From: Bacteroidota bacterium
GTDB taxonomy: Bacteria; Bacteroidota; Bacteroidia; JABEUT01
DNA length: 64,000 nt
Assembly (NCBI GenBank): GCA_013289165.1
Contig: JABDAL010000002.1
Span: 3,278 to 67,277 of the forward strand
Direction of reading: 5' to 3'
Shown: positions 7,549 through 64,000 of the stretch, in pieces
Layout of the letters: each line of letters opens with the position of its first letter
Position numbering within the stretch: position 1 is the first letter of the stretch
The notes under the pieces: generated by a model
Seen by the model: only the letters and a program-made list of their open reading frames with translations
The model's database searches: none
Told to the model about the DNA's origin: nothing
Translations under genes and position numbers: made by a program

Positions 7549-7641
7549 AAAATTTCAGAATTAGAAATAATAGTGGTTGTTTGTCTTTCGAAGTAAATAA
7601 TTGATATCAGAAGTTATTGTATGTAAAAACCTGCATACAAT

Positions 7642-7935: not shown

Positions 7936-8154
7936 CTTGATTAGTAAAAGACGTTAATACCTTTTATATAAGTAGAAATGTAAATAATAAAAAGGTGGTT
8001 AACAGTAAACCTAGAAAGCCTACAAAACCAATACCATATTCCGGTACTCCTCTGATACCAATTCAATAAGGTTGAAGTTATTCCATGTAATTTGTAATTA
8101 ATACATGCAAAATGAATTGGCAAAAACTTTTTACTTTCAATTTAAGAAAGAAAG

Positions 8155-8529: not shown

Positions 8530-8754
8530 AGTAGTGTATTAGGAATATAAAGATAGTAAGAATTTTAAATAGGCAAATTAAGCCTCTAGCCCAATACTGG
8601 TCGGATAAATCAAATGCTAAAAACAATTTTAAAGCTAAATATGAAAATAGTAGATTCATAACACTTAGAACTTAGCTAATAAACTTTAGGCGATTTAATA
8701 ATAGAGAAAACAACTAATATGAAATTAGCTGATAATTAGGCATTAAAATTTTAA

Positions 8755-8777
8755 CGTCAAAGATTAGTATAATTACC
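8755..8777. repeat. Right copy of the 23-bp perfect inverted repeat (cgtcaaagattagtataattacc)
   Basis: Exact reverse complement of 4202-4224. It ends 9 bp before the ATG at 8787. Confidence 0.8.
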
Positions 8778-8786
8778 TAAATTATT

Positions 8787-10070
8787 ATGACAGCAGTTGT
8801 AGGTATATTAAACAGAAAAGCGGTAGCTATTGCAGCAGATAGTGCCGTTTCAATAGGCGGAAAAATTTATAATAATGCACTAAAAATATTTACACTATCC
8901 AAATATTATCCTATTGGGATTATGATTTATCAAAGCGCTAACTTCATGAATACTCCTTGGGAAACCATCATAAAAATGTTTAGACAGAAATTAGATGACA
9001 AGGAATTGGATACTGTTGAAGCATACCAGATAGAATTCATAAAATATTTGAAAGAAATGAATTTTTTTTCTAGTGAGCAAGATCAAAAAACTTATCTGGA
9101 AGTATTAATCTATCAACTATTAAATGTTATTAATAAAGGGGTAATTGGCAAGATGTTTCCTAAAGATTGGGATGCTAATGATAAAGCTATATTTCTTGCA
9201 CATATTGAAAAACATTTAGATGACAACTATTTTGTACATCTTAATACTTATGTTACATGTGATGATTTTACAAACTATTCGATAGATGAGTACTTACAAT
9301 ATTGTGATAGTATAATAAAATCTGTATATGAACAATACTATAATGGTGTAACTATTACAGACAATATAAAGAATAAGCTAAACAAAATGTTCTATCTTTT
9401 ACATAAAGGAAAGGAGTCTTTTTCTCCATACAGCGGACTTATCTTTGTTGGATTTGGTGAAAAGGAAATATATCCTGCCTTAGTTCCAATAATTGTATCG
9501 TTTGCCTTTGATAAAAAATTAAAATACTATGTTTGGGAACAAAGAAAAACGAATATTACTAATGATTATTTTATGCGTAGTAGTATAACTCCATTTGCGG
9601 ATACAGATGCTATGCAAACCATTTTAACAGGTATTGAACCGAAATTAGAAAAAACATACCTCGATAATTTCAAACGGTTTTTTGAAAAGTACAATGATGA
9701 TATTATTAATGTACTTGGGGCAGCAGGGACTAATGTTGCTACAAAAATAAAATCATTAGATATTTCTACATTAACTCAACAATATGAAAACAGTATGACG
9801 GCAGATAAACAAGAAAATTATATTGCCCCACTACTTGATGCTGTTGCAAATTTATCGAAAGAAGATTTAGCAGAATTGGCGGAAAGCCTTATATATTTGA
9901 CTTATTTACAAAAAAGGATTACCTTTGCAGAAGAAAATGTTGGCGGTTCAGTTGATGTTGCTATAATTTCAAAAGGAGATGGATTTGTTTGGATTAAAAG
10001 GAAACACTATTTTAAACCAGAGCTAAATCATAATTTTTTAGAAAACTATCTATATAAGCCTAAGAAATGA
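8787..10070 (+). CDS. Ntn-hydrolase (proteasome beta/HslV-like) family protein with a large insertion and an N-terminal Thr nucleophile
   Basis: Begins MTAVVGILNRKAVAIAADSAVSIGGKIYNNALK. After Met removal this gives Thr1, with Asp17 and Lys32/33 spaced as in proteasome beta subunits. The C-terminus ENVGGSVDVAIISKGDGFVW resembles the proteasome-beta SGG...v.v.itkdG strand. At 427 aa it is far longer than HslV, Anbu or BPH. Confidence 0.45.
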   Translation: MTAVVGILNRKAVAIAADSAVSIGGKIYNNALKIFTLSKYYPIGIMIYQSANFMNTPWETIIKMFRQKLDDKELDTVEAYQIEFIKYLKEMNFFSSEQDQKTYLEVLIYQLLNVINKGVIGKMFPKDWDANDKAIFLAHIEKHLDDNYFVHLNTYVTCDDFTNYSIDEYLQYCDSIIKSVYEQYYNGVTITDNIKNKLNKMFYLLHKGKESFSPYSGLIFVGFGEKEIYPALVPIIVSFAFDKKLKYYVWEQRKTNITNDYFMRSSITPFADTDAMQTILTGIEPKLEKTYLDNFKRFFEKYNDDIINVLGAAGTNVATKIKSLDISTLTQQYENSMTADKQENYIAPLLDAVANLSKEDLAELAESLIYLTYLQKRITFAEENVGGSVDVAIISKGDGFVWIKRKHYFKPELNHNFLENYLYKPKK

Positions 10071-10278: not shown

Positions 10279-11421
10279 TCAGCAGGCAACTTTCCCGTTA
10301 TAGTAGTAATTTTTACATTTCCCGAAGTTTGACCGACCATTTTCCTGTAAGAACTGCCCATAGGCAATCTCCAGTTCCCGATATTTCCCCAGGCCTTTGT
10401 TGTCATTGACAACCCTTTCGCAAATGGTATCTGCCAAATCAAATTGTATTTTGGTATCCAGTTCCATTTTTCGATTTACAAACTGCTTGATTTGGTGGAT
10501 ATATGCGAACCAGTTTGCATAATTGCCAATATATTTTGTTGAAATACCCCTGTGGTACTCATTTACAAAGCTCTTGAAATTGTGTATATAGGCATTGGCA
10601 CTTTGCACGTGCACAGTTTTATCCATCCAATCCCTATGGTAAGTTCTGGCTTTAAAGGCTTTATAAGAGATGTTGTTATCCTCAAAAAAGGCTCTGTAGG
10701 ATGTGTGCTTATCGCAACGGACCTCTATGTCTTTAAACTTTCCAGGTATGTTAAAATACTTGTCCAAATGAACTTTTCGAACTCTGCCAATATTACTTAT
10801 ATGAAAATCCAGTTTTTTGGAATTTCGTCCGTATGTAACCAGTACCTTCGTATTATAAGGTGATTCTCCAACGGCCACTTTCCGTCTCCATTTCCTGTAC
10901 CCGTTTTTATTTGTGATGCCCATGTCCTGCCTGCCTTTTCTACTGAGCATCAAATTGCAATCGTCAAATTCTATTACCTCATTCTCAAATGTTATATTTT
11001 GATTGCTGGTTAAAGCTGAAAGTAGTTTATGCCTCCAGTTAAAGGCCGTTTGTTCGGTTATGCCTATTCGTTTTTTTACTTCTTTTAGGGATGAGAAATT
11101 TAAGCTCATGAAGTCTTCTACAAACAGATTCCATTTGTTAAGCTTCTGAATATTGCTTAAAACCGTGTTTGTTCGGTAAGTGAAACTTTTCTTGCAGGTA
11201 CGGCAGATATATCTATGATGGCCGTTCCTGATGCCATTTTTAACAATTTTACCTGAGCCACAATGCCTGCAAGCAGTAACATCGGCATGCTCGTCAAATA
11301 TTGAATAACTGCTTCTTAAATACTCGATTAAATCTTGCTTTTCCTTGACGGATAGGGTGTTAACCCTCTTTTTTAAACTCTGAATGTCCACTTTTTTACT
11401 CTTTTTCGTTTCTTTCATCAA
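10279..11421 (-). CDS. IS1595-family (ISXO2-like) transposase with an N-terminal zinc ribbon
   Basis: CRHCGSGKIVKNGIRNGHHRYICRTCKKSF zinc ribbon followed by a DDE-like domain. It is unrelated in sequence to the 4859-5782 transposase. Confidence 0.7.
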   Translation of the reverse strand: MMKETKKSKKVDIQSLKKRVNTLSVKEKQDLIEYLRSSYSIFDEHADVTACRHCGSGKIVKNGIRNGHHRYICRTCKKSFTYRTNTVLSNIQKLNKWNLFVEDFMSLNFSSLKEVKKRIGITEQTAFNWRHKLLSALTSNQNITFENEVIEFDDCNLMLSRKGRQDMGITNKNGYRKWRRKVAVGESPYNTKVLVTYGRNSKKLDFHISNIGRVRKVHLDKYFNIPGKFKDIEVRCDKHTSYRAFFEDNNISYKAFKARTYHRDWMDKTVHVQSANAYIHNFKSFVNEYHRGISTKYIGNYANWFAYIHQIKQFVNRKMELDTKIQFDLADTICERVVNDNKGLGKYRELEIAYGQFLQENGRSNFGKCKNYYYNGKVAC

Positions 11422-11593
11422 ATCCGCTTTCTTTTATAGACGCAAATATAATAAAAATACTTTACAACTACCTCGATATCTTCAGATTATATCAAAATAT
11501 TTATCCCTCAGCTATTTATACCACCCATCAACCAATGTCTAGAGTAGAGCCAAAAATTACATTAAGTGACTGGTTTTATGAGCCTAATATCTT

Positions 11594-11640
11594 TACGTCA
11601 CATTGCCCGTTTCGTGAAAAACCGTGACATAACCGCTTTT
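11594..11640. repeat. Terminal-repeat-like block containing ccgtgacataaccg
   Basis: tacgtcacattgcccgtttcgtgaaaaaccgtgacataaccgc is about 90% identical to the reverse complement of 48236-48280. Confidence 0.6.
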
Positions 11641-11717
11641 CAATTTATTTGGATTTTGTTAATTTTTTCGTAAAAAATCCTGCCAGAATATACCATTTGG
11701 TACAGGGCAGATTTGTG

Positions 11718-12761
11718 CTACTTACTTTCCATTGGAAGGGACCACCTGGCAATATTGGAAGCAATTTTGCCCCCTGCAATCATAAATTGCCCTCCTACAT
11801 AAAGTTCGTTTTTATATACGGCTATAGAGCTCACAGTTCCGGTATTTATCTTGCAATCGCCGGCCCAGTATATCACTCCACCCATACAATTCCAGGAACG
11901 GGAACTGTTTTCGTAATTCGTAATATGAAATACGTTGTCAATTCTCGGGACAGAGGTGAAATCACCCCCTACAAACAAGCCTGTATTATAAACTGCCATA
12001 GCATAAGCTCCCCCATTAAAGGGCCCCACCGGCGACCATCCATGAGTATCCCACTTCACCAGGTAATTGAATTCTCCACAGGCGTACAGTTCATCAAAAT
12101 AATTTACAAAGCACTTTACCCAGCCACTTTTGTATTGCTGCCCGGTATTGGTCACATCTTCCCATAGTTTACCTGTCCACCTTTCCACCGAGGAAAACTG
12201 CCCCCCGGCATAAAGCATTTCCCTGTACACAATAAGAGCCCATACATTATCGGGTAAACCCCTCCCCACCTTTGACCATCCCGATGTATCGCTATATCGT
12301 ACTATATGCTTTGCAGTAAGCGTATCGGCTCGTGTAAACGATCCGCCTATATACAATTGGCCTTTCATTACATACAATGCATTGATTCTTCCATTCGTAG
12401 AACCGATATATTTCCATAGTGTATCATTCCAGCACAACAGGTTGTATGATTTACCTGCACCAACTCCAATTTCTGTTCCGGCATAAAGCTTACCATTAAA
12501 CTCCGCCATAGTGGTAATATTTCCCTGGAGGTTGGAATCGGGAACAGTCCACGACTTACCATCCCAGCATGCTGTATGAGTAGCTCTTTTTCCCACACTA
12601 TCCATGCCGCCCATATAAAGCTTATCATGAAAAACATACATGGGGGTAAAATTCCCTTTGGCTCCCAACCCTACAGTGGACCATATTTGAGACGAGCAGT
12701 AATACGGTGAGAGGAAACCGCATAACAGTGCCAGTATTAGTACTTTATCTTTTAACATGTA
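11718..12761 (-). CDS. Secreted Kelch-like beta-propeller repeat protein
   Basis: Signal peptide (MLKDKVLILALLCGFLS) followed by at least 6 repeats of the form G..Y.GG.F. A start at 12761 (ATG, MLKDK) removes the overlap with the next gene. The ORF track extends to 12857. Confidence 0.55.
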   Translation of the reverse strand, partial: YMLKDKVLILALLCGFLSPYYCSSQIWSTVGLGAKGNFTPMYVFHDKLYMGGMDSVGKRATHTACWDGKSWTVPDSNLQGNITTMAEFNGKLYAGTEIGVGAGKSYNLLCWNDTLWKYIGSTNGRINALYVMKGQLYIGGSFTRADTLTAKHIVRYSDTSGWSKVGRGLPDNVWALIVYREMLYAGGQFSSVERWTGKLWEDVTNTGQQYKSGWVKCFVNYFDELYACGEFNYLVKWDTHGWSPVGPFNGGAYAMAVYNTGLFVGGDFTSVPRIDNVFHITNYENSSRSWNCMGGVIYWAGDCKINTGTVSSIAVYKNELYVGGQFMIAGGKIASNIARWSLPMESK

Positions 12762-12823
12762 TGTTGGAATTGCGTGAGGCAAATATATGGTAATTGTTCT
12801 GCTTACAACGCAAATGCTCTTGT

Positions 12824-13705
12824 TCAAATGTGTAGGGAAACAACTATTAATACCCATTGAACTAGCATGGCCCCATCATACAAAAGTGGATACATAAGAG
12901 CAGGCTTCCCGGCCTTTCCCAATGGCAGAATAGCAGCAGTAAGAATACAGGAAATGAAAAGCGCAAAGGCTATATGAGTATTCAAACCAAAATACAGTAG
13001 CTGAATAACTAAAAGAACTACAAAAAATAACAATAAAATAATAGAAAGGTAGATGGATTTTTTTTCGCCCAGCCGGACAGGTATTGTATATACCCCCCTC
13101 CGCTCATCGAAAGCCCTGTCCCTTATGTCGAAAGGAATACATAACACAAAAATAAAAAGGAATCCCCTAAAGAATATAAATAGCACTTCTGGCTTTATTA
13201 CAGAAGAAACTGATTCGGCATATACAACAGGTAGAAAAGTAGTAAGCCATGAAAAAGCCAGGGCTATCCAAACGGGTTTTAACCAATAAATATCCCTCAA
13301 GCGTTTCCAGCCACCCCTTGCAGGAACAATAGGATATGTATATCCCAGGCCAACAATTCCGGCAGGTACAAATACAAGCCACATCCTTGGTGGCATGAAA
13401 AATAATTGCACACACAACAGAGCTACGGAAACAGGTATCAGGGTATGGTAAACACTCTTATGCAGGCTCATCCAGTTGTTCCTTTCCTCCGCATTTTCAT
13501 AAAGAGTAAGGAACTTCTTTTTATTTATGCGATGAAAGCAATACAAGAGAAGAGTCGCACAAAAAACAATACCATTAACACTTAAACTGCCATTACTTCC
13601 ATACAACAATAAAGAGGTTTTAGCAGTATATGCCGCGGCACACAAAGCAATAAAAAGATTGGAATAAACAATAAAACGAATTGCAGCGGCAATCGTCCTC
13701 ATCAA
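12824..13705 (-). CDS. UbiA-family prenyltransferase-like polytopic membrane protein
   Basis: Eight to nine TM helices. FDIRDRAFDERRGVYTIPVRLG matches the second Asp-rich motif of UbiA-family enzymes (D..D...D...G..T.PV.LG). Confidence 0.5.
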   Translation of the reverse strand: MMRTIAAAIRFIVYSNLFIALCAAAYTAKTSLLLYGSNGSLSVNGIVFCATLLLYCFHRINKKKFLTLYENAEERNNWMSLHKSVYHTLIPVSVALLCVQLFFMPPRMWLVFVPAGIVGLGYTYPIVPARGGWKRLRDIYWLKPVWIALAFSWLTTFLPVVYAESVSSVIKPEVLFIFFRGFLFIFVLCIPFDIRDRAFDERRGVYTIPVRLGEKKSIYLSIILLLFFVVLLVIQLLYFGLNTHIAFALFISCILTAAILPLGKAGKPALMYPLLYDGAMLVQWVLIVVSLHI

Positions 13706-44503: not shown

Positions 44504-45403
44504 TTAAAGAAATTTAGCAAGCACCAAAATAATCAGTACAAGAGGCAAATAAGCAAACGAACCAAACATTAGCCGCAGCGCATTTTTGTTGGTTCTTTCT
44601 CTATATAATTTATAGGCAAATCCTGCTAAGCCGGCACCGGCAATAACAAGAGCCCAGGTTGCATTTATTCCGGCTGACTGATACATATATAAAAGCAATC
44701 CGGCAGGAATAATGAGAAAGGTAGAAAGCAGGATAATAATCGCGGAGGCTTTATTCCTTCCACCGGCAGTGGGAAGCATTTTAATACCCGCTTTATTATA
44801 TTCTTCGTCCAACAGCCAGGCAATAGACCAAGTATGAGGGAATTGCCAAATAAACTGAATGGCGAAAAGAATAACAGCTCCTTTGGTAATTTCACCATTG
44901 GCAGCTACACAGCCAATGACAACCGGTAAAGAACCTGCTACCGCACCGGGAAAAATAGTAAGAGGGGTGACTTTCTTAAGAGGGGTATAGACGCCGGCAT
45001 ATATCAGCATAGCAGCCACTCCTAAAAGTCCACACAAGATATTTATTTTAAAAAGTAACAGAGAACCCGCTACAGCTAATGTAATTCCAAAAACTAATGC
45101 TTCACTAACTTTCATACGTCCATCGGGCAGAGGACGCACTAGGGTACGTTTCATCAACTTATCAGAATCCTTCTCAATAATCTGGTTGAAAGTATTGGCA
45201 GCACCGGTAATAAAAAATCCGCCAATGGAGAGCATCCAAATAATTAATGGCTCTACATGACGGTCAGTAGCCCAAAGATATGCCATTGATGCTGAAAAAA
45301 CTACTAGGAATGATAACCTGACTTTTATAAGCTGGGTATAATCAGAAAAACGGGCTAGGATTGTTTTCACGGGGTGCAAAGATATACTACTTAATGATTC
45401 CAT
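44504..45403 (-). CDS. cyoE: Protoheme IX farnesyltransferase (heme O synthase)
   Basis: UbiA-family TM pattern with Asp-rich motifs. The likely start is MESLSS; the track ORF extends to 45613. Confidence 0.75.
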   Translation of the reverse strand: MESLSSISLHPVKTILARFSDYTQLIKVRLSFLVVFSASMAYLWATDRHVEPLIIWMLSIGGFFITGAANTFNQIIEKDSDKLMKRTLVRPLPDGRMKVSEALVFGITLAVAGSLLLFKINILCGLLGVAAMLIYAGVYTPLKKVTPLTIFPGAVAGSLPVVIGCVAANGEITKGAVILFAIQFIWQFPHTWSIAWLLDEEYNKAGIKMLPTAGGRNKASAIIILLSTFLIIPAGLLLYMYQSAGINATWALVIAGAGLAGFAYKLYRERTNKNALRLMFGSFAYLPLVLIILVLAKFL

Positions 45404-45461
45404 CGTGATCAATATTATCCATTTAATAAAATGCTGCTCACTATTCTTTAATCTGCCTGCT

Positions 45462-46004
45462 ATGAAGCGCCTTAAATTGATAGCGTATCTTTGTGCTGCC
45501 ATGAATGATAAACTGAACCGAATGCTGGAACTGGTGGGCGATTTTTTCGATGTGAAAAATGACCCCGAACAGCTCAGTATTACAGATGAAGTAATGAATA
45601 AGCTACATGCCATTCATCCTTCCACCATGTCTGAATATAATGAGGGTGACGGACCTATAGTTTGGATACTATTAATACCTGTCAGGGAGGCAACCATGAA
45701 CTGTTTTCTAAAAGGAGATATTTCAGAAACACAGCTGTTCGAAGAAACATCGCCCAGAGAAAAGTACGATGCCGTCTACTTATGTTCAGCTTCAGTGTTG
45801 CAGGAATACAGGGGGAAAGGATTGGCAAAAAAGCTGACTGTTGATTCTATCAATGAAATTAGTAAACAACATTCCATAAAAACACTTTTTTATTGGCCTT
45901 TCAGTAAGGAGGGCACTTCATTGGCAGAAAGTATTGCCAAGAAGGTTAACCTCCCTCTTTATACACGTGAATCCAGTTCCACATCATATGCAGCAAAATT
46001 GTGA
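45462..46004 (+). CDS. Hypothetical protein, possibly GNAT-like
   Basis: The likely start is MKRLKL. QEYRGKGLAKKL resembles an acetyl-CoA binding loop. The assignment is weak. Confidence 0.35.
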   Translation: MKRLKLIAYLCAAMNDKLNRMLELVGDFFDVKNDPEQLSITDEVMNKLHAIHPSTMSEYNEGDGPIVWILLIPVREATMNCFLKGDISETQLFEETSPREKYDAVYLCSASVLQEYRGKGLAKKLTVDSINEISKQHSIKTLFYWPFSKEGTSLAESIAKKVNLPLYTRESSSTSYAAKL

Positions 46005-47288: not shown

Positions 47289-48161
47289 ATGCGTATAAAA
47301 ATATTTTTGATTATTATCATTTCCCTGCTGGGTTTTCCTATAATGAACGCCCAAGATACGGCTCATGCTGCCAAACAGAATGTTCATCAGAATACTACGC
47401 ATAAACCACAAACTCCTAAAAAAGATACTTTAACCCATATCCCTAAACCAAGCATTCCACCCAAATACAAGCGTACGGGGTATGCAGCCCTGATGTATGG
47501 ATATGGGTCGACAACGGGCTCATTTGCAACAAATGCATTTGCCAGCAGGGGTTCTGTTGCTTCTATAAGCGTTGCATTCCCGGGGATAATTTCTCATGGT
47601 GGTATCGCATTTAAGTTTGATTATGGAAGAAATGCCCTTGATACAACTCAGTTCCTGAACAACATATATAACAGTTTTAATTTACCCTATACTACTTATA
47701 CCTTTCCGGGCATGGTAGTAAACTATTCATATAAAACAGCCTTAACCGGCTTATACCTGACCTATCCAAGCAAACATTTTACGATTGATGTCCGGGTTCT
47801 TGGAGGCGTTATGGTTGCCACGATACCAGCCGAAACAGTTTATATTTCCAAACCAGTTTATGGAGGCGACATAAGAGGTACCTTTAACGAGTATGAATCT
47901 GAGAGTACTGCCTTTGCTATTGATTTCGGAATGGAAGTACGTTATCTCCTCCGGCCAAGGCTTTCCATTATTGCGAGTGTGGATTATTTACATGCTGCTC
48001 CCTCATTTACAGTTGTTACAGCAGGAACCATTGCATCGTCGAATGGAAACCTTGTGAATGGCAATAATGAAACAGTTTCTTCCCAGCCCTTTGATTTATA
48101 TAACCTTTCCTTAGGAATAGGGTATACCATCTCCGCACAAAAGCAGGCTATCCCCCGGTAA
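47289..48161 (+). CDS. Hypothetical outer-membrane beta-barrel protein
   Basis: Signal peptide, alternating beta-strand pattern, and a C-terminal aromatic-x-aromatic pattern. Confidence 0.4.
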   Translation: MRIKIFLIIIISLLGFPIMNAQDTAHAAKQNVHQNTTHKPQTPKKDTLTHIPKPSIPPKYKRTGYAALMYGYGSTTGSFATNAFASRGSVASISVAFPGIISHGGIAFKFDYGRNALDTTQFLNNIYNSFNLPYTTYTFPGMVVNYSYKTALTGLYLTYPSKHFTIDVRVLGGVMVATIPAETVYISKPVYGGDIRGTFNEYESESTAFAIDFGMEVRYLLRPRLSIIASVDYLHAAPSFTVVTAGTIASSNGNLVNGNNETVSSQPFDLYNLSLGIGYTISAQKQAIPR

Positions 48162-48179: not shown

Positions 48180-48206
48180 ACTGCCAGGTCGGGCAGGATT
48201 TTTTAC
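48180..48206 (+). terminator. Rho-independent terminator
   Basis: ctgcc-aggtcg-ggcag hairpin followed by attttttac. Confidence 0.4.
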
Positions 48207-48240
48207 AAAAAACCCAACAAAATTCTACTAAACTCAAAAA

Positions 48241-48541
48241 CGGTTATGTCACGGTTTTTTACGAAACGGGCATGACATATCTTCCATTACCGTAAGATTT
48301 ACAACAAGTTGTATTCGTCACAGTTTTTAAGGTACCGTGACATATATTTTTATACTGTAAGTGTATAGCATTTATATAGTAAATTTTACTATTATATTTT
48401 ATTGATTACCTGCATATTCACACAATAACATAAACAAACACATGAAGGCAGCCTCCCGTTACATATACAAATACAACCGTGACATAAAACCCACAAATAA
48501 CAGGCTACCAATTAATTTAATCGTGACATAACCGTGACATA
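48241..48541. mobile_element. MITE-like element of about 300 bp with inverted termini and subterminal CCGTGACATA decamer repeats
   Basis: cggttatgtcacg (48241-48253) is the reverse complement of cgtgacataaccg (48522-48534). Decamer copies occur at 48335-48344, 48477-48486 and 48532-48541, with near-copies at 48270-48279 and 48456-48465. The left 45 nt match the block at 11594-11640 next to the IS1595-family transposase. Confidence 0.5.
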
Positions 48542-48620
48542 TTTCATAAACTGAATGTAATATTCTATGCTTAATAAGCAGGTAATTTTGTTATATTTGT
48601 ATGATATTTCAATTCCCACC

Positions 48621-50450
48621 ATGATGAAAAAACTACTTATACTTTCAATTTTCACTTTCAGCTTTTCATTTTTCATTGCTGCGCAAAAGATTTCTACTGT
48701 TGCGGGAGATCGTTCTTACGGAGCGGGATATAGTGGAGATGGCGGGCCTGCTACCAATGCTGAATTAAACGACCCTCTCGGAGTTGCCATTGATGCTTCC
48801 GGGAATCTTTATATTTCAGATTATAATGATTTTACTATTCGAAAGGTTAATACCTCAGGAATTATAAGCACCCTAGCAGGAAATCATTCTTACGGACACG
48901 GTTATAGTGGAGACGGAGGGCCTGCCACGGCGGCTGAATTATTTGAACCCTGGGGAATTACTTTTGATGCTTCGGGAAACCTCTACATTGCAGACTGGGG
49001 TAATAACATTATCCGAAAGGTTAATACTTCAGGAATAATAAGCACTTTTGCAGGCAACCATATTTTTGGCTATTCAGGAGATGGAGGACCTGCCACTGCC
49101 GCGGAATTAAGAGCGCCTAACGGAGTTGCCGTTGACGCTTCGGGTAACCTGTATATTGGAGAGGAATCTAATTATGATGTTCGAAAAGTCAACACTTCGG
49201 AAATTATAAATACCATTGCAGGAAATCAAGTATTGGGGTATAGCGGGGATGGAGGGCCTGCTGCGGCTGCCGAACTAAGAGAACCCTATGGAATTGCCCT
49301 TGATCCGGCAGACAATCTCTATATTTCAGATTTCAATAATAATCTTATCCGGAAAGTAAACACTTCAGGCATTATAAGCACGGTTGCAGGAAACTATTCA
49401 TACGGACATGGGTACAGCGGAGACGGGGGGGCAGCAACTGCCGCGGAATTAAATGGACCTGCCGGAATTGCCTGTGATGCTTCAGGTACCCTATATATTG
49501 CTGATGTACGCAATGGTGTAGTTAGAAAAGTCAACACTTCAGGAATCATAAGCACGTTAGCAGGCAACCATATTTCTGGCTATTCAGGGGATGGAGGGCC
49601 TGCCACTGCTGCCGAATTAAATGACCCTGTCGCAATTTGTTTTGACGCTTCACGAAGTTTATACATTTCTGATAATTCTAATTATGTTATCCGGAAAGTG
49701 AGTCAGGGTTGCAATTTTGGCACTCCTTCAGCAGTAGTTATCCAGGATTTACTTTGCAATGGAATTAGTAATGGAGATGCACAGGTAATTGTAAATGGGG
49801 GTACTTATCCCCTTACCTATTTGTGGTCCAACGGTTCCACAGGGGTTTCCTCAGGAGCATTTTTAGGCCCACAAACTTATACGGTTACTGTACATGATGC
49901 CAATGGATGTACCACTACGGCAAGTGTTTCTTTAACACAACCCCCGGCAATAAGCTTAAAAATGGATTCGATAAATGGATTAAACTGCAATGGCTTTGCT
50001 AAAGTATCAGCCAGCGGAGGAGCTCCCCCCTACTCCTATTTGTGGCAACCGGGCTGTGAAAAAGGAGATAGCATTCTTAAACAATGTACCGGAATCTATT
50101 GTTGCAAAGTAACTGACCACAACGGCTGTGTAAAAAATATTTGTGTGAATTTAGTTACGGGAGTAGACGAATTGTCAGTAGATAATGGACAATTAACCAT
50201 TTTCCCTAATCCATCAAATGGCTTATTCACATTGTCCTTCAGTCATCCCGAACTCGTTTCGGGCTCGCACACGATAGAAATATATAATGTTACCGGGCAA
50301 AAAGTTTATTCTACCCTTCTGCCACAAACTTCTAAAGGGACTTTACATTCTATCGACTTGGGTAATCAACCAAGTGGAGTATACTTATATAAAGTTACGG
50401 ATGAAAATAGCGCTATCATTGGAGAAGGCAAGCTGGTGATAGAAAAATAA
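48621..50450 (+). CDS. NHL-repeat, SprB-repeat protein with a T9SS type-A C-terminal sorting domain
   Basis: Signal peptide and about 6 NHL repeats (YSGDGGPATAAEL..P.G.A.DASGNLYI.D..N..IRKV). Cys-rich SprB-like repeats follow (CNG..NG, HDANGCTTTASVSLTQP), then the C-terminal sorting domain (TIFPNPSNGLFTL...GVYLYKV...GKLVIEK). The likely start is MMKKLL at 48621. Confidence 0.7.
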   Translation: MMKKLLILSIFTFSFSFFIAAQKISTVAGDRSYGAGYSGDGGPATNAELNDPLGVAIDASGNLYISDYNDFTIRKVNTSGIISTLAGNHSYGHGYSGDGGPATAAELFEPWGITFDASGNLYIADWGNNIIRKVNTSGIISTFAGNHIFGYSGDGGPATAAELRAPNGVAVDASGNLYIGEESNYDVRKVNTSEIINTIAGNQVLGYSGDGGPAAAAELREPYGIALDPADNLYISDFNNNLIRKVNTSGIISTVAGNYSYGHGYSGDGGAATAAELNGPAGIACDASGTLYIADVRNGVVRKVNTSGIISTLAGNHISGYSGDGGPATAAELNDPVAICFDASRSLYISDNSNYVIRKVSQGCNFGTPSAVVIQDLLCNGISNGDAQVIVNGGTYPLTYLWSNGSTGVSSGAFLGPQTYTVTVHDANGCTTTASVSLTQPPAISLKMDSINGLNCNGFAKVSASGGAPPYSYLWQPGCEKGDSILKQCTGIYCCKVTDHNGCVKNICVNLVTGVDELSVDNGQLTIFPNPSNGLFTLSFSHPELVSGSHTIEIYNVTGQKVYSTLLPQTSKGTLHSIDLGNQPSGVYLYKVTDENSAIIGEGKLVIEK

Positions 50451-50465
50451 ACAGTATTATATATC

Positions 50466-52280
50466 ATGAAAAAACTACTTATACTTTCAACTCTCACTTT
50501 CATCTTTTCATTTTTCATTGCTGCACAAAATATTTCCACTGTTGCCGGAAATCACTCCCTGGGACGTGGTTATAGTGGAGATTATGGCCCTGCCACAGCT
50601 GCTAAATTAGATGAGCCCACGGGAGTTTTATGTGATGCTTCCGGCAACTTGTATATTGTAGACGCTGGTGAGAATGCCATCCGAAAGGTAAATACTTCAG
50701 GGATTATTACCAGCGTTGTGGGAAATAGTGCATCGGGGTACACCGGGGATGGAGGGCCCGCTGTATATGCTGAACTGTCTGCCCCTAAGACGGCCTGTTT
50801 TGATGGTTCCGGTAACCTGTATATTGCAGACTATAATAACCAGGTTATACGAAAGGTTAATACGTCGGGAATAATCACTACTGTTGCAGGAAATAATTCC
50901 TATGGACGTGGTTATAGCGGAGACGGGGGACCTGCCACTGCCGCTGAATTATATGACCCTTTTGGAATTGCCTGTGACGCTGCGGGCAATTTGTACATTG
51001 CAGATGACAATAATGATATTATACGAAAAGTAAATACTTCAGGAGTTATAAGCACCTATGCGGGAATTCCTACAAAGCAAGGGTATAGCGGAGACGGAGG
51101 CCCCGCTACGGCAGCCGAACTATATAATCCTGATGGAGTTGTTCTTGATCCTGTTGGCAATCTCTATATTTCAGATTACAATAATCATGTTATCCGTAAA
51201 GTAAATACTTCCGGGACTATTAGCACTGTTGCAGGAAACCATACTTACGGATATAGTGGAGACGGAGGAGCTGCTACGGCGGCCGAATTGTCTATTACCA
51301 TCGGCGTTAGCCTTGATATCCCCGGTAATATATATATATCAGACGTAACTAATGAGGTTATCCGGAAGATAAACACTTCCGGGATTATTAGCACCGTTGC
51401 GGGAAATGGTAGATTTGGGTACAGTGGGGATGGAGGGCCTGCTACGGCTGCTGAAATATTTTCACCCTATCAAGTTGCGTTTGACCCTTCCGGTAATATG
51501 TATATTGCAGACTATAATAATGAGGTTATACGAAAAGTAGCTCCTTGTAACTTTGGGACTTCGTCGGCTGTAGTTATCCAGGGTATACTTTGCAATGGCA
51601 TCAATAATGGAGATGCCCAAGTAATTATAAGCGGAGGTACTTCTCCTTTTACCTATTCTTGGTCGAATGGCTCAACAGAGGATTCTTCAGGGGCATTTTT
51701 AGGCCCTCAAACTTATAGCGTTACCGTACATGATGCCAATGGATGTACGACTACGGCAAGTGTTTCTTTAACACAGCCTCCTGCAATAAGCTTAAAAATG
51801 GATTCAATAAATGGATTAAACTGTAATGGTTTTGCTAAAGTATCAGCCAGCGGTGGAGTTTCTCCCTATTCCTACCTCTGGCAACCGGGTGGAGAAACAG
51901 GAGATAGCATCCTAAAACAATGTACCGGAACGTATTGCTGTAAAGTAACTGACCACAATGGCTGTGTAAAGAATATTTGTGTGAACTTAGTAACTACCGG
52001 AATAAATCAATTGTCAACGGATAATGGACAATTAACCATTCATCCCAACCCAAGCAGTGGAGTATTTATGCTCCAAGCTAAGAGCGAAGAACAAAGAGGT
52101 AAGGGTATGGTAGAAATTTATAATGTGCTTGGAGAACAAGTCTACCGTTCAGGATTCCTGATTCCTAATTCTCAATTCCAAATTGATTTAAGTTCTCAAC
52201 CGAGTGGAGTGTATTTATATAAAGTTACGGATAAAAATAGCACTATCATTGGGGAAGGGAAGCTGGTGATAGAAAAGTAG
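50466..52280 (+). CDS. NHL-repeat, SprB-repeat T9SS cargo protein, tandem paralog of 48621-50450
   Basis: Same architecture as the upstream gene. It carries a near-identical block of about 100 aa (GAFLGPQTY.VTVHDANGCTTTASVSLTQPPAISLKMDSINGLNCNGFAKVSASGG...). Confidence 0.7.
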   Translation: MKKLLILSTLTFIFSFFIAAQNISTVAGNHSLGRGYSGDYGPATAAKLDEPTGVLCDASGNLYIVDAGENAIRKVNTSGIITSVVGNSASGYTGDGGPAVYAELSAPKTACFDGSGNLYIADYNNQVIRKVNTSGIITTVAGNNSYGRGYSGDGGPATAAELYDPFGIACDAAGNLYIADDNNDIIRKVNTSGVISTYAGIPTKQGYSGDGGPATAAELYNPDGVVLDPVGNLYISDYNNHVIRKVNTSGTISTVAGNHTYGYSGDGGAATAAELSITIGVSLDIPGNIYISDVTNEVIRKINTSGIISTVAGNGRFGYSGDGGPATAAEIFSPYQVAFDPSGNMYIADYNNEVIRKVAPCNFGTSSAVVIQGILCNGINNGDAQVIISGGTSPFTYSWSNGSTEDSSGAFLGPQTYSVTVHDANGCTTTASVSLTQPPAISLKMDSINGLNCNGFAKVSASGGVSPYSYLWQPGGETGDSILKQCTGTYCCKVTDHNGCVKNICVNLVTTGINQLSTDNGQLTIHPNPSSGVFMLQAKSEEQRGKGMVEIYNVLGEQVYRSGFLIPNSQFQIDLSSQPSGVYLYKVTDKNSTIIGEGKLVIEK

Positions 52281-52326
52281 GAATTTCATAATAATAACCT
52301 ATTTTTGCCTTTCATTTATCTAAGTA

Positions 52327-58587: not shown

Positions 58588-59859
58588 CTATATAATCATC
58601 CCCGCTCCTACTGTTTCATTAGTAGCTTCATCAATAAGTATAAGGCTGCCTGTATGGCGGTTCTTACGGTAATTATCGTAAAAGAGCGGGCGTGTGGTGC
58701 GAATAGAAATCCTGCCGATGTCATTTAAGCCAATCTCCTTGTCATCTTCCAGGCGATGCAGGGTATTAATATTTATTTTGTAATGTATTTCTTTAATCAC
58801 ACAACGGGCATCGTGGGTAGTGTGTTTAACTGCATATTTTCCACCCGGAATTAATTTTTTCTCATTCAACCAGCAAACCATAATATCTATATCCCTTCCT
58901 ACTGAAGACTGGTTATTTTCCCTCACCAGCATATCTCCCCGGCTAATATCCACATCATCCTCCAGTAATATAGTTACCGATGTCCCCGGACCTGCTTCTT
59001 TCAATTCTCCGTCGGCAGTTTCAATAGATTTTATTTTAGAAACCACTCCAGAAGGAAACACCATAATGGTGTCACCTTTTTTGAAAATTCCGCCGGCAAC
59101 TTTTCCCGCATAGCCCCTATAGTCATGATGTTTATCATTCTGCGGACGAATAACGTATTGCACGGGGAAGCGGCAATCAATCAGGTTTTCATCGCCTGCT
59201 ACGTGTATGTTTTCCAATATGTATAGTAGAGTACTTCCACCATACCAGGGCATGTTAGCGGACTTTTCAACTATATTATCTCCTCCCAGCGCCGAAATGG
59301 GAATAAACTGCACATCTACAATTTGCAGCTTTGAAGAAAACTGTTCGTACTCGCTACGTATTTTTTCAAACACTTCCTTACTAAATCCGACCATGTCCAT
59401 TTTGTTTATGCAAACAAGCACATGCTTTATCCCAATGAGGGAAGCAATGAGCGAGTGCCTGCGGGTCTGTTCAGTGATACCGTGACGAGCATCAATCAAT
59501 ATAACGGCAAGGTTAGCGGAAGAAGCCCCTGTAACCATATTACGGGTATATTGAATATGCCCCGGTGTATCCGCAATGATAAATTTCCGTTGGGAAGTTG
59601 AAAAATAACGATAGGCTACATCAATCGTTATTCCCTGCTCGCGCTCGGCGCGGAGTCCGTCGGTAAGCAAAGCAAGGTTTACCTGCGCCTCCCCTCTTTG
59701 CCGGCTGCTTTGCTTTATAGCTTCATATTGGTCCTCAAAAATAGAGCGTGCATCATATAGTAGCCTGCCAATAAGGGTACTTTTGCCATCATCTACACTG
59801 CCGGCTGTAATAAACCGTAGGAGGCTTCTTTGAGGAGTTGAAAATTTGTGGTTACTCAT
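58588..59859 (-). CDS. cysN: Sulfate adenylyltransferase subunit 1 (GTPase)
   Basis: GSVDDGKSTL G1 motif and a 423-aa length. There is no APS-kinase fusion. Confidence 0.85.
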   Translation of the reverse strand: MSNHKFSTPQRSLLRFITAGSVDDGKSTLIGRLLYDARSIFEDQYEAIKQSSRQRGEAQVNLALLTDGLRAEREQGITIDVAYRYFSTSQRKFIIADTPGHIQYTRNMVTGASSANLAVILIDARHGITEQTRRHSLIASLIGIKHVLVCINKMDMVGFSKEVFEKIRSEYEQFSSKLQIVDVQFIPISALGGDNIVEKSANMPWYGGSTLLYILENIHVAGDENLIDCRFPVQYVIRPQNDKHHDYRGYAGKVAGGIFKKGDTIMVFPSGVVSKIKSIETADGELKEAGPGTSVTILLEDDVDISRGDMLVRENNQSSVGRDIDIMVCWLNEKKLIPGGKYAVKHTTHDARCVIKEIHYKININTLHRLEDDKEIGLNDIGRISIRTTRPLFYDNYRKNRHTGSLILIDEATNETVGAGMII

Positions 59860-59866
59860 ACTTTAC

Positions 59867-60769
59867 TCAAAAATATCCAACTTTTTTCCGGTCTTCCATA
59901 GCTGTATCGGAACGTTTATCATCGGCCCGTGTGCCTCTTTCTGTTACACGCGAAGCGGCCACTTCGGCTACAATTTCATCAATGGTGGATGCAGAGGAAG
60001 GCACCGCGCCCGTGCAGGTCATATCGCCAATAGTACGAAAACGAACTTGCATCGTTTTACTTTCTTCATTTTCCCGCAAATTCAAATAAGCAGACTTAGC
60101 TAATAATTGCCCGTTCCGTTCAACCACTTCCCTTTCATGAGAGAAATATAAAGCGGGAACAGGAATATTTTCGAGTTTTATATATTGCCAAATATCCAGT
60201 TCTGTCCAATTACTGAGGGGAAAAACACGAAAATGTTCGCCCATGTTTTTTCTGCCATTATATAAATCCCAAAGTTCGGGACGCTGGTTTTTAGGATTCC
60301 ACTGCCCAAATTCATCCCTATGGGAAAAAAAGCGCTCTTTGGCTCTTGCTTTTTCCTCATCTCTTCTTGCCCCACCCAAGCAGGCATCCAGTTTCAACTC
60401 TTCAATAGCATCGAGCAGTGTAACGGTTTGCAATACATTGCGACTGGCATTATAACCTGTCTCTTCCTGCACACGTCCTTTATCAATAGAATCCTGCACA
60501 TAGCGAATAACCAGGCGCGCGACTATTCTTTCCACCCACTTATCACGATATTCAAGTGTTTCCGGGAAGTTATGGCCTGTATCAATGTGCATCAACGGAA
60601 ACGGAATTTTTGCAGGAGCAAAAGCTTTGGAAGCCAGGTAGCTTAATACGATTGAATCTTTCCCGCCTGAAAAAAGCAATGCTGACCGTTCAAATTGGGC
60701 AGCTACTTCGCGCAGAACATAGATAGATTCTGATTCTAATTCTTTTAAATAATTATTATTTGCCAGCAT
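59867..60769 (-). CDS. cysD: Sulfate adenylyltransferase subunit 2
   Basis: PAPS-reductase-like ATP-PPase fold (LFSGGKDS). Confidence 0.9.
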   Translation of the reverse strand: MLANNNYLKELESESIYVLREVAAQFERSALLFSGGKDSIVLSYLASKAFAPAKIPFPLMHIDTGHNFPETLEYRDKWVERIVARLVIRYVQDSIDKGRVQEETGYNASRNVLQTVTLLDAIEELKLDACLGGARRDEEKARAKERFFSHRDEFGQWNPKNQRPELWDLYNGRKNMGEHFRVFPLSNWTELDIWQYIKLENIPVPALYFSHEREVVERNGQLLAKSAYLNLRENEESKTMQVRFRTIGDMTCTGAVPSSASTIDEIVAEVAASRVTERGTRADDKRSDTAMEDRKKVGYF

Positions 60770-60802
60770 ATTCGTTTGAGAATATAAAGATAATGAATAT
60801 GC

Positions 60803-62530
60803 TTATGCCTGTATGTCTTTCAGGTTCAACTCCAGCGATTTTGTACCATTCCAGTTTGTTTCGCGAAGGGAGTAACATATTTTGAAGGGTCTGTCGGGGA
60901 CTATTTCCTTAAGATATTCATACATATCATACCCTATGGCAGAAAATGTAAAATTAGGGTTATCTGCCTGGGCTACTGAAAGCCTCAGGTGCCCGCTTCC
61001 TACAATTTGCGGGGGTTTGCGGGTTATTACGTTCTCGGTCATAAAAACGGGTGTCATATTACCGGGGCCAAATGGCGCGAATTGTTTTAGTACCTGGTTA
61101 AACTTAGCCGTAATAGCAGAGAAAGGCATGGAGCTGTCAATGTCAATTTCAGGATGAAGCAAATTTTCCGGCATGGTTTTACTTACCACCTCTTCAAACA
61201 GGTCGATAAAGGCAGGAAGGTTGTCTTCTTTCAAGGTAACTCCGGCAGCATACTTGTGTCCTCCAAATTGCTCCAAAAGATGCGAACAAGAAGAAATAGC
61301 CTGGTACAGATTATAGTTTTTTACAGAGCGTGCAGAACCTGTAACATGTCCGTTGGAGCGGGTTAAAATAATGGTAGGCCGATAAAAATGCTTTTCAATA
61401 AGACGGCTTGCTACTATACCTATCACTCCCTTGTGCCATTCAGGATTATACAAAACCGTTGTTTTTTTATTTTTTAATTTTTCATCTTTTATAACCATCT
61501 CGAGAGCCTCTTGGGTAATAGTAGCATCTACATCTCTGCGTTCCACATTTGTTTTATTGACGGACTCCCCGGAGAGCATTGCCTTTTGGAATGTATCGGC
61601 AATTAAAAGCTCCACCGCATTTTTCCCTGTTTCAATGCGGCCGGCAGAGTTAATCCTCGGACCAAAAACAAATACTAAATCTGACACATTGACTTCTCTT
61701 TTCAATTGAGCCAGTTCCATAATGGCTTTAAATCCTTCACGCGGAAAACTATTTATTCTTTTAAGTCCGTAATACGCCAGTATGCGGTTTTCGCCTGTAA
61801 TAGGAACAATATCGGCAGCAATGCTGAGAGCGACAAGGTCGAGATATTGTTCAATAGTTGAAAATGGGATTTCATACTTCTGCGCTATTGCCTGAACAAA
61901 CTTAAAGCCAATACCGCAACCTGAAAGTTCTTTATAAGGATAGTTACAATCTTTTTGCTTCGGATTTAAAATAGCTATAGCATCCGGTATCTGCTCATCA
62001 GGCTCGTGATGGTCGCAAATAATGAAATCTATTCCTTTCTTTTTGGCATGTTCCACCTTATCGGTAGCCTTTATGCCACAATCCAACGATATGATAAGGC
62101 CAAATCCATTATCGGCTGCATAATCCACTCCTTTAAAAGAAACTCCATAGCCCTCTATATAGCGGTCAGGAATATAGTACTCACACCTTAAACCAAGCCA
62201 GCGCAAAAAAGTAAACATAAGTGCAACAGCCGTAGTGCCATCTACATCGTAATCTCCATAAACTAAAATCTTCTCCCTTTTCTGTGTAGCATCTATAATT
62301 CTTTTAACCGCTTTTTCCATGTCCTTCATCAGAACAGGATTGTGGAGGGAATCGAGCGAAGGACGGAAAAATTCCTTTGCCTGGTTATAGTCTTCAATAC
62401 CCCGTTGTATAAGCAAATTGGCAATTATATCATTCACCTTAATAGCCTCCGATAAATGCTTTACTTTATCCAAAGGAGCCTGTTCTTTATTGTTCCATCT
62501 TTTTTCCATCAATATATTTCCGTGTTGCAA
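60803..62530 (-). CDS. recJ: Single-stranded-DNA-specific exonuclease RecJ
   Basis: DHH (YGDYDVDGTT, DHH) and DHHA1 motifs. Length 575 aa. Confidence 0.85.
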   Translation of the reverse strand: MQHGNILMEKRWNNKEQAPLDKVKHLSEAIKVNDIIANLLIQRGIEDYNQAKEFFRPSLDSLHNPVLMKDMEKAVKRIIDATQKREKILVYGDYDVDGTTAVALMFTFLRWLGLRCEYYIPDRYIEGYGVSFKGVDYAADNGFGLIISLDCGIKATDKVEHAKKKGIDFIICDHHEPDEQIPDAIAILNPKQKDCNYPYKELSGCGIGFKFVQAIAQKYEIPFSTIEQYLDLVALSIAADIVPITGENRILAYYGLKRINSFPREGFKAIMELAQLKREVNVSDLVFVFGPRINSAGRIETGKNAVELLIADTFQKAMLSGESVNKTNVERRDVDATITQEALEMVIKDEKLKNKKTTVLYNPEWHKGVIGIVASRLIEKHFYRPTIILTRSNGHVTGSARSVKNYNLYQAISSCSHLLEQFGGHKYAAGVTLKEDNLPAFIDLFEEVVSKTMPENLLHPEIDIDSSMPFSAITAKFNQVLKQFAPFGPGNMTPVFMTENVITRKPPQIVGSGHLRLSVAQADNPNFTFSAIGYDMYEYLKEIVPDRPFKICYSLRETNWNGTKSLELNLKDIQA

Positions 62531-62607
62531 ACCGGGAGCAAACTGCCTTAGCCTGTTTATGCAGTTACATATAACTCCCCAGTATTAAATTTATTTTCTA
62601 CTTCACT

Positions 62608-63561
62608 TCAGCAGGCTTCAACCGCTGATTTTATATATTCATTATAACATTTTTCACTACAAAAGCTTTTCATTTCCGAAGCACATTTTTCACACTGGAT
62701 GATAAGTGTGTGGCACGATTCAAGGGCACAATTCACCTGCCTGTCGCTGGGATTTTTGCAACTGTAACATTTCCCCAGTACATCCGGTGTTATACGCTCG
62801 CTCATACGCTCATCAAATACAAAATTCTTTCCAATAAACTTTGATTTCAATCCCACCCTATTTATTTCCCGCGCATATTGAATGATACCTCCGTCGAGCT
62901 GGTAAACATTCCTGAACCCATGATGCCTGAAATATACGCTTGCTTTTTCGCAACGTATGCCACCCGTACAGTAGAGCATAATATCCTTGTCCTTTTTATC
63001 CTCTAACTGTTTTAACACTTTGGGTAACGATTCCTTAAAGGTCCTTACATCGGGGCAAATAGCATTTTCAAAATGCCCTACTTCACTTTCGTACTTGTTC
63101 CGCATATCCACCAAAATACTAGCGGGCTCATCTATTTTATTATGAAAAGTAATTGCATCGAGCCTTGTACCTGTATTACTCAAGTCATAGGAATTTTCTT
63201 TCAATCCATCGGCAACAATTTTAGGCTTCACCTTCATTTTAAGAGCAAAAAATGATTTGCTGTCATCTTCTATAGCCTGTTTAACGGGCACATCCCTAAA
63301 CAGCGGATTCTTATATAAATGCTCAATAAAGTCCGTTACAAAATGTTCCGGCACGCTCAACTGTGCATTTATTCCTTCGTGTGCCAGGTAAATTCTTCCG
63401 TATACTTTCAGGCCATCCCAATAGGCATATAGTTCATCACGCAGTTTTACAGGGTCTTCAATATGGACATAACGGTAGAATGACAACGTTATCCTCCGGA
63501 AAGGTTCGGCTGCTACTTTTTTTCTAAGCTCTTTTTTGTTAACGCGATTATAGAGAAACAT
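62608..63561 (-). CDS. trhO: Rhodanese-domain tRNA U34 hydroxylase (TrhO/YceA family)
   Basis: UPF0176 architecture: an N-terminal domain, a rhodanese domain (CTGGIRCE), and a C-terminal Cys cluster. Confidence 0.7.
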   Translation of the reverse strand: MFLYNRVNKKELRKKVAAEPFRRITLSFYRYVHIEDPVKLRDELYAYWDGLKVYGRIYLAHEGINAQLSVPEHFVTDFIEHLYKNPLFRDVPVKQAIEDDSKSFFALKMKVKPKIVADGLKENSYDLSNTGTRLDAITFHNKIDEPASILVDMRNKYESEVGHFENAICPDVRTFKESLPKVLKQLEDKKDKDIMLYCTGGIRCEKASVYFRHHGFRNVYQLDGGIIQYAREINRVGLKSKFIGKNFVFDERMSERITPDVLGKCYSCKNPSDRQVNCALESCHTLIIQCEKCASEMKSFCSEKCYNEYIKSAVEAC

Positions 63562-63609
63562 CTCTGTTATAGGTTCCTATCTGTGGGCAAAGGTAGAAAA
63601 TTATAGGAA

Positions 63610-64000
63610 CTATATATTTTCTTTGGGTGGAGGAAGTTCGTCCAGGTGGGATGTATGGAGCTTGCTATGTGTGCGGCTATATAGAAAATAAATAAACAAT
63701 CCTAAAACCATCCAACCAAAGGCAGTTAACAGGGTGCTCATACCCAATGAAAAAATCATGGCACCGCAAACCAGTATTCCCAAAATGGGAAACAAAGGAA
63801 CAAGGGGTGCCCTAAACGGACGTGGACGATCCGGGTCACTTTTGCGTAGAATTATTATGCCAATACAAACCAGCACAAATGCCAACAGCGTACCAATAGA
63901 AGTTAAATCTCCTGCCACACTTCCGGGAATAAAAGCAGCAAACAACCCCACGAATAGAAACAGTATGAGATTTGACTTGTAAGGAGTCCGAAACTTAGGA
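63610..64000 (-). CDS. Amino acid permease (APC family), C-terminal part. The gene continues beyond the window end.
   Basis: The last 3-4 TM helices of an APC transporter. The frame is open to the window edge. Confidence 0.55.
   Translation of the reverse strand, partial: PKFRTPYKSNLILFLFVGLFAAFIPGSVAGDLTSIGTLLAFVLVCIGIIILRKSDPDRPRPFRAPLVPLFPILGILVCGAMIFSLGMSTLLTAFGWMVLGLFIYFLYSRTHSKLHTSHLDELPPPKENI

Follow-up and report, generated by a model that had tools for sequence, protein, structure and literature searches.

Anatomy of the repeat upstream of the NHL/SprB genes

The DNA analysed here (the window) is a stretch of 64 kb from contig JABDAL010000002.1 of Bacteroidota bacterium (JABEUT01), assembly GCA_013289165.1. 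Near 48 kb, an intergenic repeat of ~340-370 bp (48189..48559, + strand) separates a conserved gene for a protein of 290 amino acids (aa; 47289-48161) from two tandem NHL/SprB genes (48621-50450 and 50466-52280, + strand), which are 68-70% identical and encode type IX secretion C-terminal domains. The repeat is a copy of a small, lineage-restricted intergenic family and is independent of the IS1595-family insertion sequence (IS) present in the window. The 290-aa gene is ended by a terminator-like hairpin (CTGCC/GGCAG; 48181-48196, + strand) followed by a T run to 48206, which was found by a terminator scan at the place where a preliminary description of this DNA, made from the sequence alone, had put a terminator. 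Open reading frame (ORF) finders place the start of the first NHL/SprB gene at 48567, for a product of 627 aa; the likely start is instead 48621 or 48624, where both the signal peptide (MKKLLILSIF..) and the likeness to the paralogue begin.

The repeat is built around the decamer CCGTGACATA, which occurs five times in the window against an expectation of 0.07 from dinucleotide-preserving shuffles of the 64-kb sequence (n = 100), none of which reached five. Exact sites lie at 48245-54 (- strand), 48335-44, 48477-86 and 48532-41 (+ strand), and at 11622-31 (+ strand) in a second copy of the repeat near 11.6 kb. Within 48245-48541, the 9-mer CGTGACATA has four exact sites on the + strand (one at 48522) and one on the - strand, and one-mismatch 9-mers are found at 48271 (CATGACATA) and 48457 (CGTTACATA); a weaker - strand copy, TTCGTCACAG, was read from the sequence at 48314-23. 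At least four decamers and two degenerate copies had been listed in the preliminary description, in agreement with the four exact decamers and the two one-mismatch 9-mers. A count of the decamer, which that description had named as a test, showed it to be confined to the repeat copies, as no 10-mer with up to one mismatch was found elsewhere in the window or in ~19 kb of extra sequence from the same strain.

The left part of the repeat is a near-invariant core (48234..48279, + strand; TCAAAAACGGTTATGTCACGGTTTTTTACGAAACGGGCA-TGACATA) with two facing motif copies, namely copy 1 (48245..48254, - strand; exact), which is the outermost left site, and the degenerate copy 2 (GCATGACATA; 48270..48279, + strand). 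Copy 3 (CTGTGACGAA; 48314..48323, - strand), also degenerate, forms an inverted pair with the exact copy 4 (48335..48344, + strand), and an AT-rich centre without the motif follows (48345..48455). To the right of the centre, copy 5 (CCGTTACATA; 48456..48465, + strand; one mismatch) is followed 21 bp further on by the exact copy 6 (48477..48486, + strand) and then by the tandem copies 7 and 8 (TCGTGACATA-A-CCGTGACATA; 48521..48541, + strand; 11-bp spacing), which gives spacings of 21, 44 and 11 bp for the right-arm sites. Copy 1 lies within the left arm (48240-48256), and copies 7 and 8 make up the right arm (48519-35), of a pair of 17-nt inverted repeats that are 94% complementary and 262 nt apart. 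The enclosed stretch is AT-rich, and the GC content of 48236-48545 is 0.32 as compared with 0.384 for the window, so the earlier outline of a ~300-bp AT-rich stretch bounded by inverted copies holds. The likeness of the arms (14-17 nt) is confined to the motif itself, and the exact termini of the element cannot be fixed: the left limit is 48189 by homology to the 11.6-kb copy or 48234 by homology to two further copies described below, and the right limit is at about 48546-48559.

Copies and conservation

The 18-mer CGGTTATGTCACGGTTTT was used in an exact scan of 185,579 species genomes, a species-representative set that excludes the window's own genome, and then of metagenome contigs. The species genomes gave 16 stretches, as many as chance predicts for 18 nt; most of them fall in coding sequence from unrelated phyla. 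Among the metagenome contigs, there were two meaningful matches amid chance ones, designated L033 and L024, both from sample Ga0206994. This sample holds the strain of the window, contig _1092 being 100% identical to window positions 58616-64000 (5385 bp). Tetranucleotide composition was uninformative as to whether L033 and L024 belong to the same genome or to a co-resident relative, since other Bacteroidia scored equally high.

The family thus comprises four copies (48 kb, 11.6 kb, L033 and L024) in a long form of ~340 bp and a short form of ~60-100 bp. All four share the core of ~45 nt, TCAAAAACGGTTATGTCACGGTTTTTTACGAAACGGGCA(0-3 nt)GTGACATA, which is nearly invariant. The short copy at 11583..11687 (- strand) consists of the 3' half of a terminator, an A-rich spacer and the core. 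Its positions 11594-11687, as the reverse complement, match 48189-48279 over 91-94 nt with ~87% identity and one 3-nt gap, and no above-chance similarity between the two copies was found upstream of 48189. The 3' half of the 48-kb terminator and its T run are therefore already within the common block. This match had been noticed before over 45 nt; it is real, and longer than claimed (91 nt, ~87%). The L024 copy (5604-5683; ~80 bp) resembles the 11.6-kb copy, and the L033 copy (2478-2831) is the full-length counterpart of the element at 48 kb.

The two long copies are 61% identical over 330 columns and 95-100% identical over the first 40. When the motifs were masked, the two halves of the alignment scored 63 against 15±2.4 and 33 against 14.8±2.1 in shuffles, and ~320 bp are homologous. 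In both long copies the outermost sites are mutually inverted, and each copy has a tandem pair at 11-bp spacing (at 2713 and 2724 in L033, where a 55-bp spacing also occurs). The inverted pair of copies 3 and 4 is kept in L033 as GTGTCACG..CCGTGACATA, and the block AAGTGTATAGCATTTATATAGTAAAT of the AT-rich centre is likewise conserved. Individual sites turn over between the long copies and the overall arrangement is retained; the short copies have two sites 16-20 nt apart. Because the homology runs through the spacers and through ~320 bp of non-motif sequence, it argues for copying of the whole segment and against independent gain of sites, and such copying is a well-supported origin for the family.

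Two independent short-read assemblies of the strain, from different runs, have contigs that end at 11623 and 11594, and these overlap by exactly 30 nt within the short copy. If the assemblies use 31-mers, this break suggests a branch of the assembly graph, which would reflect either one more near-identical copy elsewhere or a variant at that place. A fifth copy of the family therefore probably exists.

The facing core motifs can pair in a 7-9-bp stem in all four copies, as might be expected if the repeat were a structured RNA or single-stranded DNA hairpin, that is, a small RNA gene or a unit resembling repetitive extragenic palindromic (REP) or REPIN sequences. Other features make this extremely improbable. 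Rfam gave no match at the gathering score, the best relaxed match scoring 18.6 bits (E = 0.77; threshold, 37 bits). Core folds have z values mostly of -0.4 to -1.4, which are insignificant; those of whole elements (z about -2) are driven by the arms alone, and the core stems include no compensatory changes. The units are not palindromes, and the 4-5 known copies are far below the numbers in REP families.

All four copies are intergenic and their flanking genes are unrelated. At 11.6 kb, a beta-propeller gene (379 aa; 11718-12857, - strand) ends in a terminator, and the repeat lies downstream of this gene, between that terminator and the IS. The L024 copy follows the terminator of a glutamate dehydrogenase gene and precedes small unannotated ORFs, for which no counterpart was found in the window. 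On one side of the L033 copy, a divergent MoxR ATPase gene starts; on the other, the stop codon of a response-regulator gene (2813-3619, - strand; 268 aa) abuts the right end of this long copy. The receiver domain of this regulator best matches the BtsR/LytR type; its C-terminal 116 residues look LytTR-like by eye, with no Pfam DNA-binding domain, and this is not evidence for a partner of the repeat.

Restriction to one lineage

The locus orthologous to that at 48 kb was compared in five relatives (seven loci, L039-L042 and L051-L053; 43-48% protein identity), none of which has the NHL/SprB genes there. In the relatives, DoxX or Usp comes next after the 290-aa gene, and UbiA is close by. The order at L039-L042, L052 and L053 is HI0933-like, 290-aa gene, DoxX, UbiA (- strand), E2 acyltransferase and TonB receptor. 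In the window, the repeat and the two NHL/SprB genes (48189-52326) stand in place of DoxX/UbiA, and a UbiA gene is found upstream at 44504-45613. At this distance (43-48%), the relatives' loci indicate restriction to a lineage and do not represent an empty site.

Further searches did not extend the family. The 18-mer had one chance match in coding sequence among viral contigs, in which the tandem 20-mer had none, and blastn of plasmids and phages with the element gave zero matches. A literature search with the motif sequence retrieved only primers in unrelated papers. A protein homology search with NHL/SprB found the tandem partner as the only close paralogue and added no copies of the element.

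The position of the NHL/SprB pair where relatives have DoxX/UbiA could be taken to mark its point of entry, with the decamers as arm-type integrase sites round an AT-rich crossover core. In attP sites of the lambda type, arm-type integrase sites flank the crossover core, and the element has a comparable layout over ~300 bp: its left arm carries opposed sites, its right arm carries tandem direct ones, and its centre is AT-rich. Such an attP-like site is very improbable, however: neither the window nor the flanks of the L024 and L033 copies contain an integrase gene, and no matching repeat was found at the other end of the NHL/SprB pair, nor any trace of the motif in the viral, phage and plasmid collections. 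Moreover, integration does not leave an intact two-armed site in the chromosome.

The IS1595-family element near 11.6 kb

The transposase gene next to the short copy (10279..11421, - strand; 380 aa) was assigned to the IS1595 family by the NCBIfam model (99 bits; cutoff 75) and is below threshold with Pfam alone. The repeat begins 173 nt upstream of the transposase start at 11421, which fits the distance of ~175 bp and the family assignment given in the preliminary description. From this proximity, the repeat had been proposed to share an end with the IS and to be derived from it. Three transposase homologue loci (53-58% identity) were fetched, and neither the decamer nor the core was found upstream of these genes. 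Their upstream regions share a conserved box, which is the terminal inverted repeat. The complete copies at L046 and L044 end in terminal inverted repeats of 25 bp, GGYTCWACTCTAA(A/C)CTTTGACTGAT, and have target duplications of 8 bp; terminal repeats with duplications of this length are typical of the IS1595 family (PMC12561309). The L046 element has a perfect 25-bp pair (3930-54 and 6455-79) and the duplication GAAAATCT, and the L044 element has a pair at 2926-50 and 7110-34 and the duplication TTATAGGA. These elements, of 2.55 kb and 4.2 kb, respectively, carry passenger genes that include genes for small helix-turn-helix proteins.

In the window, the left terminal inverted repeat of the IS (GGCTCTACTCTAGACATTGGTTGAT) is at 11527..11551 (- strand) and is unrelated to the decamer. 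No partner for a right end was detectable in the window, and this IS copy is probably truncated or decayed. The repeat sits 31-42 nt outside the IS end and has no similarity to it, and the other IS1595 copy in the window (4859-5782) has no motif-like ends. As the IS ends are independently defined and unrelated, with neither the 25-bp ends nor the 8-bp duplications matched in the repeat, these comparisons refute both the supposed shared end and the derivation from IS1595. An annotation trap is thereby corrected, in that the repeat beside this transposase gene is not the IS end, and the real ends of this IS1595 lineage are now defined.

The repeat could still be a MITE (miniature inverted-repeat transposable element) that is mobilisable, or was until recently, by a transposase encoded elsewhere that binds the decamers as terminal and subterminal sites, any effect on NHL/SprB being incidental. 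Dispersal over unrelated intergenic sites and the occurrence of a long and a short form are features that this family shares with many MITE families, and each long copy has its two outermost sites in inverted orientation. The 6-bp direct repeat TAAACT flanks the 48-kb copy (48229-34 and 48547-52), the assemblies break inside a short copy, and the relatives' orthologous loci are without the element. The equivalent flanks at L033, however, are GCATTT and ATGTAA, no duplication is evident at the short copies, and consistent ends are lacking. No transposase gene flanked by the motif was found in the window or the fetched loci, and the ends of both IS1595-family elements in the window are unrelated. 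The copies are few and diverged (61% identity between the long ones) with no sign of recent activity, and the loci of such distant relatives do not qualify as empty sites. Present-day mobility is therefore not supported, and a MITE of this kind is unlikely. Of the non-autonomous element put forward in the preliminary description, the dispersed copies with inverted motif arms stand; a consistent target duplication and an autonomous partner were not found.

Arrays of a different short motif, AATAACAA (3x), occur near the IS copies at L043 (3785-3836) and L046 (3817-3868 and 6480-6528), and are alike despite different flanking genes. Their role as subterminal IS repeats analogous to the decamers was considered and rejected, as the arrays lie outside the 25-bp ends and the 8-bp duplications. 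The IS adjoins such an array at L043 and sits inside one at L046, and the IS in the window is 31 nt from the decamer repeat; this IS1595 lineage may favour insertion beside arrays of short motifs.

Other features of this part of the window were observed. In another assembly of the same strain, a Logan contig (SRR8422341_28; L050) contains the reverse complement of window positions 1-4218 and 2183 bp of upstream sequence joined directly to window position 4356 onward. The two assemblies thus differ in the orientation of a segment of ~6.4 kb, whose junction is at a shared AAAGAAAGAAATGAATGTG; this reflects either inversion between two inverted IS copies or a mis-join. Positions 6174-10070 include five or six ORFs (227, 217, 97, 98/124 and 427 aa) that neither Pfam nor NCBIfam recognises. 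On one side of this run is a tRNA gene with an IS1595 copy (4859-5879) and on the other the second IS1595-family transposase gene, and the run looks like an accessory island.

Promoters and orientation

The -7 promoter consensus in Bacteroidota is TAnnTTTG. A consensus scan found no match inside the element on either strand. Matches are present only outside, by the starts of flanking genes, at 48592..48599 (+ strand; TATATTTG), at L033 position 2439 (- strand; TACTTTTG) and at 11450 (- strand; TATATTTG). The first of these is 22-25 nt before the start codon of the NHL/SprB gene and would sit within the longer ORF from 48567. The array spans about -60 to -360 from this predicted promoter. Nearest to it is the tandem pair 48521-41, which lies ~50-80 bp upstream of the -7 match, centred at ~65-75 bp. 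The element had been suggested to supply or modify the promoter of the downstream genes; it may modify it, but supply is unsupported, given that the predicted -7 match (48592-99) is outside. Two other promoter types were considered by eye for the core and did not fit convincingly: the GG/GC dinucleotides of a sigma-54 promoter were not found, and the spacing for a promoter of the extracytoplasmic function (ECF) type is inconsistent between copies.

The position of promoter matches also bears on whether a recombinase might flip the 262-bp segment between the 17-nt arms and so phase-vary NHL/SprB. In known Bacteroidota invertons, inverted arms flank a short segment upstream of surface-protein genes. 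At 48 kb, too, such arms enclose a short AT-rich segment that immediately precedes surface-protein genes, and similar arms are found at a second locus, L033. Against this, the TAnnTTTG match is fixed outside the segment, next to the gene, and there is no recombinase gene among the annotated genes of the window. The segment has the same orientation in two assemblies of the strain, and the short copies, with sites 16-20 nt apart, cannot be invertons. An inverton at this locus is accordingly improbable.

Interpretation

Taken together, the segment 48189-48559 is best read as a copy of a small lineage-restricted intergenic repeat family that forms a homotypic cluster of predicted binding sites and is not derived from IS1595; the probability of this reading is put at about 0.5. 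The core (~45 nt) holds two facing copies of the unit ACCGTGACATA, to which the long form adds 4-6. With spacings of 21, 44 and 11 bp, the right-arm sites lie roughly on one face of the helix. The motif copies are predicted sites for one sequence-specific DNA-binding protein encoded elsewhere, and the family, with its MITE-like anatomy, may owe its origin to duplication or to mobilisation in the past. At 48 kb, the array would most likely put the NHL/SprB operon under the bound protein, by activation, repression or an effect on DNA architecture. We infer a binding platform from the integrity and phasing of the sites, from their arrangement, which is kept despite turnover, and from the core, which is conserved far better than the rest. 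Protein binding and modulation of the NHL/SprB promoter are thus suggested by the sequence comparisons. An array of protein-binding sites had been offered as the alternative in the preliminary description, and it remains viable and is now the preferred mechanism.

Several observations weigh against this reading. Motif columns are only modestly above the others in identity (0.66 versus 0.59), and with only four copies, selection on the sites is not cleanly separable from shared descent. No gene lies downstream of the L033 array in the orientation of the element, so a simple upstream activating array does not suit that copy. None of the other genes for type IX secretion cargo in the window has the motif upstream. 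No binding protein was found, and no regulator gene is near the window copies. Finally, the motif and the core are absent from all seven orthologous loci, which gives no comparative support for a conserved regulon.

A related explanation is that the decamers are a native operator array that was never mobile, the sites for the regulator of a small regulon, for instance a response regulator recognising direct repeats in tandem. The phasing of 11, 21 and 44 bp and the position of the tandem pair ~65-75 bp upstream of the -7 box would suit such an array. On the - strand, the pair ATGTCAC-GGTT-ATGTCAC resembles the layout of OmpR/PhoB-type sites, two direct repeats at 11 bp, a lead that is not evidence for a partner. 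In addition, a response-regulator gene abuts the L033 copy, and the C-terminal half of its product is LytTR-like by eye, but Pfam finds no DNA-binding domain in this protein. The homology between copies runs through the spacers and ~320 bp outside the motif, no functional theme unites the flanking genes, the orientation at L033 is unfit for a downstream target, and the motif is not conserved at the relatives' seven orthologous loci. An array that was never mobile is, on balance, quite unlikely.

An extension of the preferred reading, the predicted binding-site cluster, would be that the repeat is a portable control cassette, which wires neighbouring accessory genes into a regulon private to the lineage, or a recombination point for acquiring such genes. 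The genes so wired at 48 kb would be the adhesin-like NHL/SprB pair that is absent from the relatives, and the partner, a protein specific to the strain, could be a domesticated transposase or a response regulator. This is speculative and is considered distinctly unlikely.

If the repeat is bound by a regulator, it would represent a clear bacterial case of regulatory sites that were spread by copying of a DNA segment, located beside genes for secreted surface proteins, and the 11-bp unit and the 45-nt core would be probes for finding the partner protein. Otherwise, it is an ordinary lineage-specific intergenic repeat in the genome of an uncultured member of the Bacteroidia.

Comparison with known systems

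IS1595-family elements such as ISApl4 have simple terminal inverted repeats of 14-25 bp and 8-bp duplications (PMC12561309; L046 and L044 in this work). The repeat, in contrast, has neither this type of end nor an 8-bp duplication, and one copy adjoins an IS of this family, outside its end at 11551. Bacteroidota invertible promoters resemble it in having inverted repeats round a few hundred bp before surface-protein genes, and in occurring at more than one locus. Unlike these, the repeat has no promoter consensus inside, no recombinase nearby and one orientation in two assemblies.

Pho boxes, to which regulators of the OmpR/PhoB type bind, are tandem direct repeats with 11-bp phasing and a TGTCA-type core. 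The tandem pair of the repeat has the same spacing and a TGTCA-type core, and further sites are found at multiples of ~10.5-11 bp upstream of the promoter. Unlike in Pho boxes, most sites of the repeat are single or in facing pairs 16-20 nt apart, and homology between copies extends over the whole segment, which ordinary operators do not show.

Correia elements of Neisseria occur in hundreds of copies, with defined terminal repeats of 26 bp and TA as the duplicated target. Elements of the Correia type often adjoin promoters or terminators and can alter the expression of neighbouring genes. They share with the repeat a short length, an intergenic location, inverted ends and long and short variants; the repeat differs in its ill-defined ends, the lack of a consistent duplication and its low copy number.

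The closest described system in the phylum, compared by description, is BrickBuilt, a MITE of Porphyromonas gingivalis whose minisatellite units of 23 nt stand in tandem with no spacers and which has 19 copies per genome (PMC4596501); no sequence similarity between it and the repeat is expected. Both are found in Bacteroidota with a restricted range (by species for BrickBuilt), are always intergenic, and are modular with varied lengths and small inverted-repeat ends. Both have also been proposed to influence neighbouring transcription. In the repeat, by contrast, the 11-bp units are dispersed and point both ways, the 45-nt core is nearly invariant, and ~4-5 copies are known.

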